From positions 27,874 through 91,873 of the forward strand of contig CAMBPB010000002.1 in NCBI GenBank assembly GCA_945869465.1: a stretch of DNA of 64,000 nucleotides. Reading direction: 5' to 3'. Of this stretch, positions 56,615-64,000 are shown piece after piece. Position numbers and translations under genes: made by a program. Position 1 is the stretch's first letter. Each line of letters begins with the position of its first letter. The DNA is from Prosthecobacter debontii (GTDB lineage Bacteria; Verrucomicrobiota; Verrucomicrobiia; Verrucomicrobiales; Akkermansiaceae). Under the pieces are notes generated by a model. That model was given only the letters and a program-made list of their open reading frames with translations. It did no database searches and was not told where the DNA came from.

Positions 56615-57904
56615 ATGCACGGATTCTCCTACAAAAACGGTTCACTTTATTGCGAAGATGTCGATTTGGCCACGCTTGCCACCGAGTATGGCACCCCGCT
56701 CTATGTCTATTCCGCGGGGACGATTCTCGATCATTACCGCCGCCTTGATGCCGCGCTGGCCGGTGTGAATCACGAGGTGGCGTATGCGGTGAAGGCGAAT
56801 TCCAATCTCTCGGTACTCCGCTTGCTTGCCAACGAGGGCGCCGGTTTCGACATCGTTTCGGGTGGCGAGCTCTATCGGGTGATCAAGGCTGGCGGGGATC
56901 CGGCGCATTGCACCTTTGCCGGTGTCGGCAAGACTCGCGACGAGATCGTGTATGCCCTCGAACAGGGGATCTACTCGTTCAACGTCGAGAGCGAGGAGGA
57001 ACTTCGCTATCTGAACGAAGTGGCTGGCGAACTCGGCGTGATTGCGCCCGCTGCGGTGAGGGTGAATCCCAATGTCGATGCGCACACTCACAAGTATATC
57101 TCCACCGGCAAGTCCGAGAACAAGTTCGGGGTCGATTTCGGGGCTATCGCCGGACTTTACGAACGCGCGGCAGCGGAGATGCCTAACATCCGGATGCGTG
57201 GCCTGCAAATGCACATCGGATCACAGCTCACCTCAATCGCGCCGTTCATCGAGGCGGTGGAAAAAGTCGCGCCGCTCGCCAGGGAACTCAAGGAGCGCCA
57301 TGGCATCGAATTCTGGTCCATCGGCGGCGGCATCGGGATTATCTACAAGGGTTCGCTGGAATCCGGCAGTGTCGAATGGTGGGAAAGCCAAACCGATGAA
57401 GAGCGCCCGCTGACCACCGTGCGCTATGGGGCCGAACTCGTGCCACGCCTCAAGGAGCTCGGCTTGAAAATCCTGGTGGAACCCGGTCGTTTCATCGTGG
57501 GCAATGCCGGCGTGCTGCTCACCCGCTGCCTCTTTGAGAAAAAGGGCGCGGCCAAGACTTTCAAAATCGTCGATGCCGGAATGAACGATCTGATCCGTCC
57601 GGCACTCTACGAGGGCCACCATGAAATCGTCCCGCTCAAACAACCGGCGACGGATGCGCGGGTCACCGTGGATGTGGTGGGGCCGATCTGTGAGAGCGGC
57701 GACTTTTTCTGCCAGAACCGCGAGCTGCCCGACTTTCAGCCCGGCGATACCGTCGCGTTGATGTCCGCGGGCGCCTATGGTTTTGTGATGGCTTCGAATT
57801 ACAACTCGCGGCCCTTGCCTGCCGAGATTCTGGTCGAGGGATCGACCTCGACCGTCGTCCGCAAACGCCAGAGCCTGGATGATCTGATCGACGGTGAGCT
57901 CTAA
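56615..57904 (+). CDS. lysA: Diaminopimelate decarboxylase
   Basis: YAVKANS, HIGSQ, GGG, EPGR, GPICESGD, GAYG...SNYNSRP. Confidence 0.97.
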   Translation: MHGFSYKNGSLYCEDVDLATLATEYGTPLYVYSAGTILDHYRRLDAALAGVNHEVAYAVKANSNLSVLRLLANEGAGFDIVSGGELYRVIKAGGDPAHCTFAGVGKTRDEIVYALEQGIYSFNVESEEELRYLNEVAGELGVIAPAAVRVNPNVDAHTHKYISTGKSENKFGVDFGAIAGLYERAAAEMPNIRMRGLQMHIGSQLTSIAPFIEAVEKVAPLARELKERHGIEFWSIGGGIGIIYKGSLESGSVEWWESQTDEERPLTTVRYGAELVPRLKELGLKILVEPGRFIVGNAGVLLTRCLFEKKGAAKTFKIVDAGMNDLIRPALYEGHHEIVPLKQPATDARVTVDVVGPICESGDFFCQNRELPDFQPGDTVALMSAGAYGFVMASNYNSRPLPAEILVEGSTSTVVRKRQSLDDLIDGEL

Positions 57905-57922: not shown

Positions 57923-57943
57923 GATGGGACGAGACGTCCCATC
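57923..57943. terminator. Perfect hairpin between convergent lysA and folB
   Basis: GATGGGACG-AGA-CGTCCCATC; no clear U tract. Confidence 0.55.
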
Positions 57944-57946
57944 GGC

Positions 57947-58300
57947 TTATCCCCTCACCACATGCACGGCCACGCACTCGGTGTCTGGCAGGATGTGTTT
58001 CTCGATGGTGACGGCGACGCTCGTCAAGGGGTGTCGGCCTAACAGCCAGTCAGCGGTTTCCACGGCGAGGGTTTCAATCAGGTTGCGGGGCCTGGAAGCG
58101 GCGAGGGCCTGGATTTCCAAGGCAACGGCGTGGTAATCGACTGTGCGCGAAATATCGTCGGCGAGGCCGTCGAAACCCTGGCCGGGGACCAAACGCACGC
58201 TGATCCACAGCGTTTGCGCGCGGGCGCGCTCCTCGTCAGGCACGCCGATGCGGGCGCTGACTTGCAGGCGGCGGATTTCAATGGTGTCGGGTGGGTTCAT
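57947..58300 (-). CDS. folB: Dihydroneopterin aldolase
   Basis: IGVPDEER..AQ, DDISRTVDY, NLIETLA, IEK. Confidence 0.92.
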   Translation of the reverse strand: MNPPDTIEIRRLQVSARIGVPDEERARAQTLWISVRLVPGQGFDGLADDISRTVDYHAVALEIQALAASRPRNLIETLAVETADWLLGRHPLTSVAVTIEKHILPDTECVAVHVVRG

Positions 58301-58346
58301 TGGAATGAGGTTTGAACGGAGAGCGGTCGGATTTGCGGTGTTTCTA

Positions 58347-59390
58347 TCAACTATCGATCATCAACTTCCGCTCCATGGCCACGGCGAGCAACGTGCGGGT
58401 GGGTTGGTTGAGATCAAGGGCGAGGGCATCGGCCGGCGAAAGCCAGAGGAATTCCTCGGCTTCGTCGTTGAGGCGCACGTCGGTGCCGCGGGCACGGGCG
58501 AGGTAGTTGAGCAGGATGAAATGCTCGGGACGCATGAACTCGGTGGAGTCGATGCAGTCCTGGACGATGACGAAGCGGACGTCGTCGATGACGAGGGCGG
58601 TTTCCTCGAGGACCTCGCGGCGGAGGGCGGTGTGGGAGGGCTCGCCACGGTTGATTTTCCCGCCGGGAATGCCCCATTTGTCGCTCCACTTGTGGGTGCG
58701 GATCATCAGGACCCTGCCCGCGCCATCGTGGATCAGCGCGCCGACGGTGGCGATGGGGCGGGAGATGCGGCGGCGGTCTAGCAACTCGCGCAGCGCCCCG
58801 AGATCGGGAACGGTGAGGTCCGGCCTAACGGCAGCGAGGATTTCCGGGTGGTTGTAGCCGGTGAGAACCGCGATGGACGAAACGCCGCCGTGACGCGCGG
58901 TTTCGACATCGTGGGTCATGTCGCCGACAAACGCGGTTTCGTTAGGATTGAGGCCGTGGGTTTCGAGGATCTGGTGGATGATCTCGCGTTTGTCGAGGAC
59001 CCCGGAGTAGGTGGCTTCGAAGAGATCGCGCAGGCCGAAGTCGTCCATCTGCCTTTCGAAGGCGGTGGAATCCATCGAGGTGAGGACGAAAGTGCGGATG
59101 CCGGATGCGGCGCACCATTCGAGTTTTTCCCGGGCGTGGGGGAGCACGGTGACGGGAGTGAGCGCGGCATCGAAGGCCGGGCGGAAATGCGCCTCAAGTT
59201 CCTCCAACGGAACATGCGGCAGCATCTCGGTGTAAAATTCGCGATAGGGCAGGCGGAAGTGGCGGCGGAAGCTCTCGCGATCGAAGGGCGGAACGGCGTA
59301 TTTCCCCAACACCGCGTTGGTCGCCTCGATCACCGGTCCGAGATCGTCCACCAGCGTGCCTGACCAATCAAAAATGAGGTTGCGGAACAT
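58347..59390 (-). CDS. HAD-family phosphatase fused to a Nudix hydrolase
   Basis: N-terminal FDWSGTLVDD and FVGDMTHD; C-terminal Nudix box GGKINRGE...ALRREVLEET. Confidence 0.9.
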   Translation of the reverse strand: MFRNLIFDWSGTLVDDLGPVIEATNAVLGKYAVPPFDRESFRRHFRLPYREFYTEMLPHVPLEELEAHFRPAFDAALTPVTVLPHAREKLEWCAASGIRTFVLTSMDSTAFERQMDDFGLRDLFEATYSGVLDKREIIHQILETHGLNPNETAFVGDMTHDVETARHGGVSSIAVLTGYNHPEILAAVRPDLTVPDLGALRELLDRRRISRPIATVGALIHDGAGRVLMIRTHKWSDKWGIPGGKINRGEPSHTALRREVLEETALVIDDVRFVIVQDCIDSTEFMRPEHFILLNYLARARGTDVRLNDEAEEFLWLSPADALALDLNQPTRTLLAVAMERKLMIDS

Positions 59391-59398
59391 GGGGGAGA

Positions 59399-59485
59399 AA
59401 TTTTGAAATTTTAAATCCTAAGTTCTAAATGGAGTGAAATCGGAAGGCGGAACTCTGATCTTCCGTTTCGAATTTAGGGCTTAAT
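59399..59485. repeat. AT-rich heptamer array with complementary distal arm
   Basis: AATTTTG AAATTTT AAATCCT AAGTTCT AAAT; inner stem CGGAAG/CTTCCG; distal arm TTTCGAATTTAGGG. Confidence 0.7.
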
Positions 59486-59501
59486 CATGAGTGCCTGGTC
59501 A

Positions 59502-61406: not shown

Positions 61407-62234
61407 ATGCCCATATCAGAAGTCACTCCCATCGTGCCCAGAGAAGGCTGGCACGTCATGCATTTGTTCTATCACGTCGATCACGCGCAATGGGCGCTGT
61501 ATGGCGACGATGAAAAACGCCAGGCCAAGACCCGCCTCACGGAGTTGGTGCAGGAAATCCGCGCCACGCCCGACACCCACCTGCTGATTTTCTCGGTGGC
61601 GACGCCCAAGGCGGACCTCGGGTTCATGCTTCTAACACCCGACTTGCAGGTGGCGAACACTTATGAGAAACAACTCGGCCTCTCGCTCGGGCCGGAGATC
61701 CTCAGCGCGGCGTATTCCTATCTCTCGCAGACGGAAAGTTCCGAATACACCACCAGTCGCGAGCAATACGCCGCGGAAACGCTGGTGGAGGAAAAAGGCC
61801 TGGCCGATGGCACCCCAGAGTTCGAAACCGCGCTCAAGGAGTTCGACGAGCGGATGGCCCACTATCTCAAACACCGACTCTATCCGGTGCTGCCGGACTG
61901 GCCGGTGATCTGTTTCTATCCAATGTCGAAGCGCCGCAGCGGGGCCGACAACTGGTATGCCCTCAGCTACGAGCAGCGCCGCGAGCTGATGTCCGGCCAC
62001 GCCCGAGTCGGCCGCACTTATTCGGGCCGAATCCTCCAGCTCATCACCGGCTCGACCGGCCTTGATGAATACGAATGGGGCGTCACCCTGCTGGCCAAGG
62101 ACACCATCGACATCAAGTCGATCGTCTATGAAATGCGCTTCGACGAGGTGTCCGCCCGCTACGCCGAATTCGGCGATTTTTTCGTCGGCATGCAGCTCCC
62201 GCTAGACGTGCTGTTCCGGCGGATCTGTTTGTAG
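61407..62234 (+). CDS. hemQ: Coproheme decarboxylase HemQ/ChdC (chlorite dismutase-like)
   Basis: EGWHVMHLFY, CFYPMSKRR, NWYAL, HARVGR, GSTGLDEYEWGV, EMRFDEVSARYAEFG. Confidence 0.88.
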   Translation: MPISEVTPIVPREGWHVMHLFYHVDHAQWALYGDDEKRQAKTRLTELVQEIRATPDTHLLIFSVATPKADLGFMLLTPDLQVANTYEKQLGLSLGPEILSAAYSYLSQTESSEYTTSREQYAAETLVEEKGLADGTPEFETALKEFDERMAHYLKHRLYPVLPDWPVICFYPMSKRRSGADNWYALSYEQRRELMSGHARVGRTYSGRILQLITGSTGLDEYEWGVTLLAKDTIDIKSIVYEMRFDEVSARYAEFGDFFVGMQLPLDVLFRRICL

Positions 62235-62395: not shown

Positions 62396-62853
62396 TTGAT
62401 CAGGCGGAAGAACAGCTTGCCCGGAGCCGCCGTGAAGGTGATGGACTTGGTGATACCGTCATCGGCGATTGGATATGCCGAATCCTCCCAGCTCTCCGGC
62501 GTCAGATCGGAGCTTTGCTGCAGCGGATGGGTGGTGAACGAAGACTGCCAAGCGACCGTGATGGTCGCGTCCGCGCTGAGAGCGATTCTCAGCGGGGGGC
62601 CTTCCACCGTGATGACGCTCAGGAAGCCGGCATCGACGCTGAAGTCACTGCCGGACATCGAACCGCCAGACTCGGGCTGGCTGACTGCACCGCTGAGGGA
62701 GTATTCGCCGCCGGAACTCTCGCCACCGCCTCCTTCGATGGCGAACCAGTCGACGTGATAGTCTTCCCCGGCGCTCGAGTCATAGAACACCAGCAGACAG
62801 CAGGCGGCGGCAGGCCGGATCCAGCGGACTCCCGGAATGCGGCTGGGTTTCAT
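62392..62853 (-). CDS. Small secreted protein with a Gly-rich motif and C-terminal FFRL tail
   Basis: Signal-like N-terminus; DWFAIEGGGGESSGGEYSLSGAVSQP; ends PGKLFFRLIK. Confidence 0.78.
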   Translation of the reverse strand: MKPSRIPGVRWIRPAAACCLLVFYDSSAGEDYHVDWFAIEGGGGESSGGEYSLSGAVSQPESGGSMSGSDFSVDAGFLSVITVEGPPLRIALSADATITVAWQSSFTTHPLQQSSDLTPESWEDSAYPIADDGITKSITFTAAPGKLFFRLIK

Positions 62854-64000
62854 TTCGCACCTCCTTCGGATTTGCGAGCGAGGGATTCGACGCTGCGCCG
62901 CAGGTCAGTGATGGCTTGCTTCAAGCTGGCGATCTCGTCGTCCTTTCGCTCCATTTCATCCTCGAATTTTCCGTTCAACCCCTGAATGGCCGCCAACGCG
63001 ACGCCATCCGCATCGACAGTGGCGATGTGCCTGTCGTCGGGACCTACGCCGAAAGCGGCGTGGAAGTCCTGGGCCATCGGGCCGAGATGGCGGACGGAGG
63101 GGTCGGATTTGTAGCACCACTCGCTCACCGGCAAGGCCACCAGTTTATCAAGGACAGACTGTGGCTCCACGGACCGGAAGTCTTTTTTTGCGTTCCGGTC
63201 ACTGCTCAGGATCACTGAGTTGGCGACCACGTTGCCGCGCACGTTGAGATTTCCCGGACTGGTCAAGCGCATGAGTTCCAGCCCGCCAGCGCCGGGATCG
63301 TGGGCGGTGTTGCTGTGGATGCCAATCCGGTGCCATGAGAAATGGTTTCCGGTGCGAAAGTAGAGGGTGTCCGACTGCACGCCGACGGCATACAGGCTTC
63401 CGACCAGATTGACCAACTGCCCGATGGCAGCGCCAAAGCTGAGGGTGCCGGAGCCATTTACCGTCAGGTTTCCGGCGGATGAGATCGCTAGGCGCGATTG
63501 GTTCGCGGTAACCAATTCCAACGGGTGATTGCTGGCGGTTCCCATGAATCCGAGTCCGCTTTGGCTGGCTTCCATCTGCACCTCGACGCGCTGGGATCCG
63601 ACGGCGGGGGCCGGACCCGCCACGGCCAGGAACGCCGCTCGTCCCGAGGTCAACCCGTCTTCCACCACGCAGCGCTGGCTGGCGGCATTGATGGTGGCCG
63701 CGCCGGATGACTCGCCGACATGCAGCCGGTGCAAAGGGGATGTCGGGCCGATTCCCACCCGGAGATCCTGCATCAGGGTCATGACTGGAAAGTCACCGGG
63801 AGAACCTCCGTAAGAGAAGCGCATCTTGCCGTTGGTCCGGCCTCCTGCCGGTCCGTTGTCGATGTGGAAATAGGCGAATCCGTCGGGTGGCCGGAAAGTG
63901 ATCGCCCCCGGGATGCCGAAGTCCAAGCCGGTGGTGATCCGGTTGTGGAAATGATTGTTTCCGGTGAAAGCCTGATCTGCGGTGAGGCGGGCGATATTGG
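62850..64000 (-). CDS. Tail-fibre-like protein with a C-terminal peptidase S74 chaperone domain, 5' end beyond the window
   Basis: Frame open to the window edge (NIARLTADQAFTGNN...); SDRNAKKDF, HLGPMAQDFHAAFG, DGVALAAIQGL, then a coiled coil. Confidence 0.88.
   Translation of the reverse strand, partial: NIARLTADQAFTGNNHFHNRITTGLDFGIPGAITFRPPDGFAYFHIDNGPAGGRTNGKMRFSYGGSPGDFPVMTLMQDLRVGIGPTSPLHRLHVGESSGAATINAASQRCVVEDGLTSGRAAFLAVAGPAPAVGSQRVEVQMEASQSGLGFMGTASNHPLELVTANQSRLAISSAGNLTVNGSGTLSFGAAIGQLVNLVGSLYAVGVQSDTLYFRTGNHFSWHRIGIHSNTAHDPGAGGLELMRLTSPGNLNVRGNVVANSVILSSDRNAKKDFRSVEPQSVLDKLVALPVSEWCYKSDPSVRHLGPMAQDFHAAFGVGPDDRHIATVDADGVALAAIQGLNGKFEDEMERKDDEIASLKQAITDLRRSVESLARKSEGGAK

Follow-up and report, generated by a model that had tools for sequence, protein, structure and literature searches.

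A HAD–Nudix fusion protein encoded next to folB is a candidate for dephosphorylation in the folate synthesis of Verrucomicrobiota

In this study, we analysed a locus of Prosthecobacter debontii at which a gene for a fusion protein with a HAD and a Nudix domain (P0001) is followed by folB (P0002); coordinates refer to the window, that is, the whole stretch of 64 000 nucleotides that was analysed (Table 1). According to the original prediction, a two-domain HAD and Nudix gene lies 46 bp upstream of folB on the same strand, and this is borne out by the ORFs and by Pfam. The start codons of both ORFs match the N-termini of their homologues, and the consensus terminator scan found no terminator-like site in the spacer at 58301–58346; the two genes form a two-gene unit. 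On its far side folB converges on lysA, and the 42-bp gap separating them holds the hairpin at 57923–57943, which has no T-run, may terminate transcription in both directions and was not called by the consensus terminator scan. On the other side lies an unrelated, divergent ORF at 59487, and the intergenic region in front of the HAD–Nudix gene is presumed to be its promoter region, although the promoter scan gave no sigma-70 consensus match within 59391–59486. Taken together, the promoter and terminator consensus scans yielded nothing usable at this locus.

Table 1. Features of the HAD–Nudix/folB locus and its surroundings (positions in the window)
Feature	Position	Strand	Basis or remark
HAD–Nudix fusion gene (P0001)	58347..59390, stop codon included	minus	347-aa ORF, ATG start
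HAD domain, residues 1–207	58770..59390	minus	motifs, conservation, AF2 model, Foldseek
Nudix domain, residues 208–347	58350..58769	minus	Nudix box, domain model, fold comparison
Spacer, HAD–Nudix stop to folB start, 46 bp	58301..58346	minus	ORF list
folB (P0002), dihydroneopterin aldolase family, 117 aa, ATG start	57947..58300	minus	Pfam, TIGR00526
Perfect hairpin, 9-bp stem and 3-nt loop	57923..57943		read from sequence
A+T-rich divergent intergenic region, 96 bp, 5' of the HAD–Nudix gene	59391..59486		ORF list, sequence
lysA	56615..57904	plus	converges on folB

The downstream gene is recognized as a member of the FolB family by Pfam PF02152 (residues 7–114 of P0002, 70.8 bits, cut-off 31.8) and by the TIGR00526 FolB domain model (54.2 bits, cut-off 45.05). 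It is the single FolB-family match in the genome, which also encodes FolE2, HPPK and pterin-binding, DHPS-type proteins, and therefore folate synthesis in this organism needs P0002; no NudB equivalog scored above its cut-off in the genome. In 14 HAD-linked FolBs the residues E24, Y56, E76 and K101 do not vary, and they line up with the Mycobacterium tuberculosis DHNA 1nbu; they correspond to the catalytic Glu, Tyr, Glu and Lys (E22, Y54, E74 and K100 in Staphylococcus aureus). These four positions do not tell FolB from FolX, because FolX has the same residues. It could be asked whether the module serves a non-folate pterin instead, such as monapterin or another reduced pterin cofactor, with the FolB-family protein acting as epimerase or aldolase in that branch and the HAD–Nudix protein dephosphorylating the triphosphate of that branch. 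P0002 indeed stays below the cut-off of the TIGR00525 equivalog (63.2 versus 72.15 bits) and is weakly similar to the FolX model; moreover, the pair is flanked in distant family members by a homologue of a queuosine-precursor transporter and by an SDR whose closest match is of the TmpR/pteridine reductase type. However, we regard this explanation as unlikely, given that P0002 is the only FolB-family gene next to HPPK, DHPS-type and FolE2 genes in the same genome, that the DHNA catalytic residues are invariant and that a dihydropteroate synthase gene adjoins one of the Nudix–FolB fusions described below.

The linkage to folB, on which the original prediction depended, proved to be conserved across Verrucomicrobiota. 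In a phylum sample FolB comes directly after the fusion gene at 29 of 30 loci, and among 80 related loci drawn from 185,579 species genomes it does so at 69; of the 11 loci that lack a downstream FolB, four reach a contig end or stop within about 500 bp of one. Conservation extends to members only 30–36% identical (P0182, P0194 and P0152), in which folB overlaps the fusion gene at its stop codon. When the HAD domain alone is followed, it is fused or adjacent to FolB in 35 of the 41 loci examined in the phylum sample, the remaining six genomes encoding FolB elsewhere, and in a minority of genomes the HAD–Nudix gene is unlinked from folB. The linkage to folE or folK that had also been considered did not hold: no FolK, FolP, FolE2 or QueD is encoded within 5 kb at the 80 loci of HAD–Nudix relatives, and a wider 'fol cluster' for the HAD–Nudix clade was rejected on these grounds. 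According to a look-up in the ESM Atlas, most of the close family comes from Verrucomicrobiota. Further HAD–Nudix fusions, which are more distant, occur in Bacillota and Pseudomonadota.

Gene fusions of three types with FolB add to the conserved linkage. The best 150 representatives include 50 HAD–Nudix, 19 HAD–FolB, seven triple HAD–Nudix–FolB and two Nudix–FolB proteins. HAD–FolB is a single ORF of 330 aa in Akkermansia-like genomes, including that of Akkermansia muciniphila; the triple fusions come from Verrucomicrobiota and Planctomycetota (one from the latter), and one of the Nudix–FolB genes is followed by the dihydropteroate synthase gene mentioned above. In a tree of HAD domains, the FolB-linked clade, with the motif D-W-S-G-T, stands apart from its unlinked D-W-N-G-T sisters with a support of 100. 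Each fusion label requires at least three changes on well-supported branches of this tree, and the fusions have thus arisen or been broken several times. Because the adjacency is conserved in such a large part of the related loci and gene fusions have recurred, the arrangement of the HAD–Nudix gene and folB is not due to chance; the coupling of the HAD clade and of the Nudix clade to FolB is persistent and has been repeatedly re-invented.

Pfam NUDIX matches residues 214–334 of P0001 with 70.4 bits (cut-off 21.1), and the Nudix box is intact (G244-x5-E250-x7-R258-E259-V-L-E262-E263-T-A-L), the sole change from the consensus GX5EX7REUXEEXGU being an A in place of the last G. Within the family E250 and E263 are invariant and R258, E259 and E262 are conserved in at least 90% of the members, and the family has conserved motifs of its own (K234-W235, W239, N308-x-E310 and N328-x-P330-T331). 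The whole P0001 AF2 model consists of two folded domains with a mean pLDDT of 93; the Nudix domain modelled alone reached a pLDDT of 93.6, and its alpha/beta/alpha fold was confirmed by comparison with Ndx1 (1vc8; Z 19.1, rmsd 1.6 over 126 residues). NudB (2o1c) follows at rank 19 among the structural neighbours with Z 16.2, a value within the range of 15–19 reached by many Nudix enzymes, and is one among about 100 Nudix chains above Z 8. With 25.4 bits the domain stays below the cut-off of the NudB equivalog NF006961 of NCBIfam (103) and is no orthologue of NudB; no specific NudB or FolQ relative was found in a sequence search of the PDB, and in the same search the AtNUDX1 structures matched at only 22 bits.

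The neighbours of the Nudix domain in both sequence and structure are NudI/MutT-like. Together with public annotations of the protein as phosphoglycolate phosphatase, MutT or ADP-ribose pyrophosphatase, this would suit an unrelated housecleaning nucleotide phosphohydrolase, converting for example an NTP to the nucleoside, whose position next to folB is meaningless. However, such an enzyme would leave unexplained both the independent HAD–FolB, Nudix–FolB and triple fusions and an adjacency that persists down to 30% identity, and in view of these comparative data we consider it very unlikely. What P0001 has in common with the enzymes known to act on dihydroneopterin triphosphate (DHNTP), namely FolQ (YlgG) of Lactococcus lactis, NudB of Escherichia coli and AtNUDT1, is the Nudix fold with an intact box, and the reaction of these enzymes, DHNTP to DHNMP plus PPi, is the one we propose for the Nudix domain. 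FolQ was discovered through the folKEPQC cluster (PMC1971073), so that an association with folate genes is shared as well, and a fused FolQ–FolB protein of Parachlamydia UWE25 has been on record since 2007 (PMC1971073, Table 2). Whereas the known FolQ, NudB and AtNUDT1 enzymes are without a HAD domain, the Nudix domain of P0001 is fused to one.

The HAD domain (Pfam HAD_2, residues 5–175, 85.2 bits, cut-off 23.8) belongs to subfamily I with a C1 four-helix cap, having a Rossmann-like core and the cap inserted after motif I (helices 17–30, 38–44, 49–56 and 62–74 in the AF2 model). Its motifs are F-D8-W-S10-G-T (I), T104/S105 (II), K134 (III) and G156-D157-x3-D161 (IV). The nucleophilic D8, which sits at the end of strand 1, occurs in every one of 88 clade members and in 18 of 18 sequences of a second alignment, and K134, G156, D157 and D161 vary little or not at all. 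The general acid/base Asp two residues past the nucleophile (Asp+2), on which canonical HAD phosphomonoesterases rely, is, however, absent throughout: position 10 is Ser in 84 of the 88, Ala in three, Cys in one and Asp in none, and the sister clade has Asn at this position. D16 and H160 are conserved in the clade and, judged from the alignment, could substitute for the missing acid/base. A Foldseek search gave C1-cap HADs at E about 1e-14 and TM (target) 0.73–0.85, and its hits include Gph-like C1-cap proteins, the pyrophosphatase BT2127 and AlnB. The best matches in sequence and structure combined are the Gph-like C1-cap HADs (COG0546; PDB 2go7, 2ah5 and 2hsz) and BT2127 (E about 1e-13, TM (target) up to 0.85), which have core motifs I, with its Asp nucleophile, to IV and the four-helix cap in common with the HAD domain. 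In contrast to the D-W-S-G-T clade, the three closest (2go7, 2msn and 2ah5) read D-L-D-G-T and none of the Gph-like HADs or BT2127 is linked to folB. The neighbourhoods of the sister D-W-N-G-T HADs, with genes for a transglutaminase, a PALP enzyme, a 2-hydroxyacid dehydrogenase and RecG, gave no hint of an ancestral function.

That the nearest named relatives are phosphoglycolate phosphatase-like is of interest with respect to the order of steps, which the fusions do not reveal. FolB releases a C2 aldehyde from that end of the side chain which carries the phosphate, and if FolB cleaved phosphorylated dihydroneopterin, glycolaldehyde phosphate or phosphoglycolate would arise; the HAD domain might then act after FolB on this C2 by-product or, in damage control, clear an oxidised pterin phosphate. 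We give little credence to this idea. We know of no FolB that uses phosphorylated dihydroneopterin, and P0001 is far from reaching the NCBIfam Gph equivalogs (59.8 bits against a cut-off of 225); the similarity reflects the shared C1-cap subfamily only. Furthermore, the clade has conserved cap residues of its own, the aromatics F45, F52 and Y53, which probably lie in the region of the cap that determines substrate specificity.

The lack of Asp+2 bears more directly on the chemistry. A Ser at this position has been described as unique among HADs for LHPP, for which pyrophosphate, imidodiphosphate and P–N bonds are the reported substrates (PMC11277029, section 3.2). The HAD domain of P0001 could thus work in the same pathway as a phosphoanhydride-directed hydrolase like LHPP or BT2127, here without Asp+2, taking the terminal phosphates off dihydroneopterin tri- or diphosphate or splitting released PPi, with the Nudix domain working alongside or in support. 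The last ester phosphate would then be taken off by the same HAD domain, though with poor leaving-group catalysis, or by a non-specific phosphatase, or it would stay on. The Ser found almost throughout the clade, its likeness to LHPP (PMC11277029) and the presence of the inorganic pyrophosphatase BT2127 among the structural neighbours all speak for such an activity, as does the situation in Akkermansia-like genomes, where FolE2 and HAD–FolB are present and no orthologue of the P0001 Nudix domain was found, as if the HAD domain were enough. On the other hand, BT2127 itself carries Asp+2, and the PDB entries among the matches are its Asp13 mutants. LHPP in turn is a eukaryotic enzyme with PPi and P–N substrates and no pterin context. 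It presumably belongs to another HAD subfamily with another cap type, and the resemblance is a lead on chemistry, not on ancestry. In addition, D16 and H160 might take over as acid/base, the Nudix box is intact and conserved wherever the domain occurs, which suggests that the Nudix domain does real work, and a fusion with FolB is simplest to understand if the HAD domain makes the true substrate of FolB, fully dephosphorylated dihydroneopterin. On balance, we see the phosphoanhydride-directed activity as possible though not probable.

Removal of the last phosphate of dihydroneopterin monophosphate is still drawn as the work of a 'non-specific phosphatase' (PMC1971073, PMC4161248), and as of 2007 the pyrophosphatase gene was likewise missing in most bacteria (PMC1971073). 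Because the linkage to folB is conserved and the open-access literature still gives a non-specific enzyme for the phosphatase step, the proposal that one polypeptide is a candidate for both dephosphorylation steps stands, and on the comparative sequence evidence P0001 is a strong candidate for removing the phosphates in folate synthesis. The assignment of pyrophosphate release to the Nudix domain and of monophosphate removal to the HAD domain is less secure, being weighed against by Ser10, by the LHPP precedent (PMC11277029) and by a Nudix domain that is dispensable in Akkermansia-like genomes; here we infer the substrates, the sharing of the work between the domains and the way in which the HAD domain catalyses without Asp+2. 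We nevertheless somewhat favour a model in which the two-gene unit feeds 7,8-dihydroneopterin to the aldolase by a Nudix-then-HAD route; the SDR of TmpR/pteridine reductase type near distant members also counts in favour of this model. According to this model, FolE2 (GTP cyclohydrolase IB, encoded elsewhere in the genome) would form dihydroneopterin triphosphate, from which the Nudix domain would remove pyrophosphate in the manner of FolQ and NudB. The HAD domain would then take off the remaining 3'-phosphate through an aspartyl-phosphate on Asp8, the step now credited to the non-specific phosphatase, and FolB would convert dihydroneopterin to 6-hydroxymethyl-dihydropterin and glycolaldehyde. 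Precedents reportedly exist in other vitamin pathways, namely the riboflavin ARPP phosphatases and a thiamin monophosphate phosphatase found through fusions. The logic is the same, in that fusion or clustering tied a HAD protein to a cofactor step formerly called non-specific; these HAD phosphatases differ from the D-W-S-G-T HAD in pathway and substrate, and the latter is without the canonical Asp+2 and its activity is a prediction.

The Nudix-plus-HAD scheme is not universal, since Akkermansia-like genomes keep HAD–FolB and FolE2 without this Nudix domain. A Chlamydia-type RibA/TrpF bypass, by which the monophosphate is made directly, was considered as the reason for the absence and is not supported, as these genomes carry FolE2. 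As a tentative, and on present comparisons rather doubtful, extension, the D-W-S-G-T HAD may be a dedicated dihydroneopterin-phosphate phosphohydrolase that works without Asp+2 and always accompanies FolB in PVC bacteria; where the Nudix domain is lacking, as in the HAD–FolB of A. muciniphila, it would by itself convert the triphosphate to dihydroneopterin. If this were true, a prominent symbiont of the human gut would harbour a hitherto unrecognised enzyme for the textbook 'non-specific' step.

Among the steps by which bacteria and plants make folate, only the loss of the last phosphate from dihydroneopterin monophosphate lacks an assigned gene. A search of the open-access literature gave no paper in which a HAD enzyme is connected with FolB or with this monophosphate. 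A family that is repeatedly fused to FolB is a concrete lead for filling this gap, the more so as Luteolibacter and A. muciniphila are cultivable carriers. If the proposed function is confirmed, thousands of annotations of the type 'phosphoglycolate phosphatase', 'MutT' or 'HAD hydrolase-like' would be corrected, the family would show that HAD enzymes in nature can function without the Asp+2 acid/base, and models of the folate pathway would be completed for Verrucomicrobiota, Planctomycetota and likely chlamydia-like bacteria.

The first part of the original prediction, a two-domain HAD and Nudix gene lying 46 bp upstream of folB on the same strand, is borne out by the ORFs and their Pfam domains (see table). 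As lysA on the opposite strand is convergent with folB, and an unrelated ORF is divergent upstream of the HAD-Nudix gene, the two genes form a two-gene unit. The hairpin between folB and lysA may be a bidirectional terminator without a T-tract.

Coordinates of features in the window and in related loci
Feature	Location	Strand	Remarks
HAD-Nudix ORF, 347 aa	window 58347..59390	-	ORF listing of window; HAD_2 residues 5-175, NUDIX 214-334 (Pfam)
folB ORF, 117 aa	window 57947..58300	-	ORF listing of window; FolB domain at 7-114 (Pfam)
Perfect 9-bp inverted repeat, 3-nt loop	window 57923-57943		in 42-bp gap between convergent folB and lysA
Chlorite-dismutase-family protein	window 61407-62234	+	259.4 bits vs cut-off 253, hydrogen-peroxide-dependent heme synthase (HemQ) equivalog
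358-aa ORF	window 62850-63926	-	Peptidase_S74 (endosialidase intramolecular chaperone) domain at 242-292
FolE2 directly after QueD/PTPS-family gene	G000:C74:15878-17119 (window's own genome)		distant from folB and folK
Vut_1/YhhQ homologue, HAD-Nudix, FolB, SDR cluster	L119:3660-6533; L118:4260-9131		distant members
Nudix-FolB fusion, 243 aa, without HAD	L147:4001-5552		10 bp, then dihydropteroate synthase-type gene
cpYpsA (circularly permuted SLOG, PF12694)-FolB fusion, 303 aa	L142:1456-2367 (G279); also L144-L146		cpYpsA N-terminal

Elsewhere in the window, the HemQ match points to a coproporphyrin-dependent haem route in this verrucomicrobium. Peptidase_S74 domains are known from phage tail fibres and from certain surface proteins; none of the ORFs surrounding this one matched a family.

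The pairing of the HAD-Nudix gene with folB is real and well above chance; its parts are ordinary and their combination is unusual. Conservation of the linkage, proposed as a check, was found in two samples. Of 401 genomes sampled from the phylum, 46 carry a close HAD-domain relative (E at most 1e-39), and FolB is fused or directly downstream in 35 of the 41 loci examined, the six exceptions having FolB elsewhere in the genome. Names given to relatives include Luteolibacter, Haloferula and Akkermansiaceae, all Verrucomicrobiota. When one genome from each of 185,579 species was scanned for the clade motif as a pattern, at least 600 stretches matched, and FolB lies directly downstream in 69 of the best 80 loci; four of the other 11 lie at a contig end or stop no more than about 500 bp short of it. 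FolK, FolP, FolE2 and QueD were not found within 5 kb in any of these best 80 loci, so that the linkage is specific to folB and an association with folE and folK, which the same check named, was not seen. In members only 30–36% identical, which come from metagenomic contigs (one of 1.6 Mb, another of 253 kb with an ankyrin-repeat gene), FolB still overlaps the stop codon of the fusion gene. Two of these contigs carry a homologue of the queuosine-precursor transporter (Vut_1/YhhQ) upstream of HAD-Nudix. Both also carry an SDR with a best match of the TmpR/pteridine reductase type, which immediately follows FolB in one contig and lies some 2 kb downstream of it in the other; in L119 the cluster genes overlap tightly. 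One MAG contig labelled Akkermansia muciniphila (L037, CAMDLP010000005.1) has a HAD-Nudix gene 82% identical to that of the window and a separate FolB; this label is probably wrong, since the architecture is of the Luteolibacter type, whereas in Akkermansia the HAD is fused to FolB.

Within the same family, an Akkermansia-like genus has HAD and FolB joined in frame in a 330-aa ORF (HAD_2 5-175, FolB 217-324), and members of this cluster bear the name 'HAD hydrolase-like protein [Akkermansia muciniphila]'. When 1.84 billion cluster representatives were searched exhaustively with HMMER, 158 matched with E at most 1e-30; the top 150 comprise HAD-Nudix (50), HAD-FolB (19), HAD-Nudix-FolB (7) and Nudix-FolB (2) proteins as well as HAD (52) or Nudix (19) alone, many of these single-domain matches being fragments. 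The triple fusions were confirmed by Pfam, and one, from a Planctomycetota MAG, is annotated solely as dihydroneopterin aldolase. In a maximum-likelihood tree of HAD domains the FolB-linked clade is separate from its nearest unlinked relatives with support of 100, and the HAD-FolB and triple-fusion labels each change at least three times on well-supported branches; therefore fusion or fission occurred several times. The cpYpsA-FolB fusion comes from one family of Verrucomicrobiota, in which the D-W-S-G-T HAD is a stand-alone protein. Among single proteins, P0141 has a degenerate Nudix box (..PTVP..REAGL), P0132 an Smr domain N-terminal to HAD-Nudix, and P0215 a tetrapyrrole methylase domain joined to the same Nudix clade. 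Taken on this comparative evidence, there is little doubt that the HAD and Nudix clades work with FolB.

The genome from which the window (C2:27874-91873) derives is 3.59 Mb and 93.5% complete. It contains GTP cyclohydrolase IB (FolE2) adjoining a QueD/PTPS-family gene, HPPK, three pterin-binding genes, dihydropteroate synthase presumably among them, and the window's folB as its one FolB-family gene, and therefore de novo pterin synthesis is expected; no type-I FolE was found in it. None of its five Nudix genes reaches the NudB equivalog cut-off, and thus a recognised pyrophosphatase for pterin synthesis is absent. The FolB ORF falls slightly below the strict NCBIfam folB cut-off and above that for the FolB domain, and the aldolase residues E24, Y56, E76 and K101, aligned with M. 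tuberculosis DHNA, show no variation among 14 HAD-linked FolBs. The Nudix domain retains an intact Nudix box, which is conserved across the family, and has conserved tryptophans and an N-x-P-T motif of its own. It was not assigned to NudB by the NCBIfam equivalog, and neither NudB nor AtNUDX1 was singled out by sequence or fold comparison.

The AF2 model of the HAD-Nudix protein (pLDDT 93) has a pTM of 0.66, and the domains are therefore probably flexibly linked. The HAD part is modelled with a Rossmann-like core and a four-helix C1 cap, and its structural neighbours are phosphoglycolate-phosphatase-like HADs, the pyrophosphatase BT2127 and AlnB. Motifs I (Asp8), II, III (Lys134) and IV (Asp157, Asp161) are present. 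The Asp two residues past the HAD nucleophile normally acts as general acid/base; here 84 of the 88 clade members have Ser and none has Asp. A sister clade about 30% identical (motif I D-W-N-G-T-L-L-D-D; L137-L141, in genomes G389, G083, G128, G266 and G356) has Asn there and no consistent neighbours, folB never adjoining it, and hence the loss of Asp is older than the link to FolB. LHPP, which acts on pyrophosphate, imidodiphosphate, phospholysine and phosphohistidine, is reportedly the only HAD enzyme with a Ser here (review, PMC11277029, section 3.2), a feature it has in common with the D-W-S-G-T clade. The conserved D16 and H160 are candidate replacements for the missing acid/base, and the conserved cap residues F45, F52 and Y53 could stack on a pterin.

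The original prediction assigned both dephosphorylation steps to the fusion. We consider it likely that the HAD-Nudix protein serves FolB by removing phosphate from dihydroneopterin phosphates. The simplest scheme, which is also that of the original prediction and in which the Nudix domain would strip pyrophosphate, the HAD domain would take off the last phosphate and FolB would then act, agrees with the coupling to FolB and is slightly favoured, although the Nudix domain is not a NudB orthologue and the HAD domain lacks the usual Asp. The main alternative is that the pathway is the same but the HAD cleaves a different bond, an idea raised by this missing Asp and by Akkermansia-like genomes that have FolE2 and HAD-FolB and no orthologue of the Nudix domain. 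Three further readings are less likely still: that the module serves a different branch of pterin metabolism, that the HAD follows FolB and acts on a C2 product bearing a phosphate, or that the protein has a housecleaning function unrelated to FolB.

FolQ was itself found through gene clustering, and a listing from 2007 included a Parachlamydia protein in which FolQ and FolB are fused (PMC1971073); at that time the dihydroneopterin monophosphate step was termed non-specific, as it was again in 2014 (PMC4161248). Our full-text searches of open-access literature returned no paper tying a HAD enzyme to FolB or dihydroneopterin monophosphate, and family members carry generic names in public annotation. 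The HAD-Nudix protein is a candidate, open to direct test, for a step of a textbook pathway to which no enzyme has been assigned.
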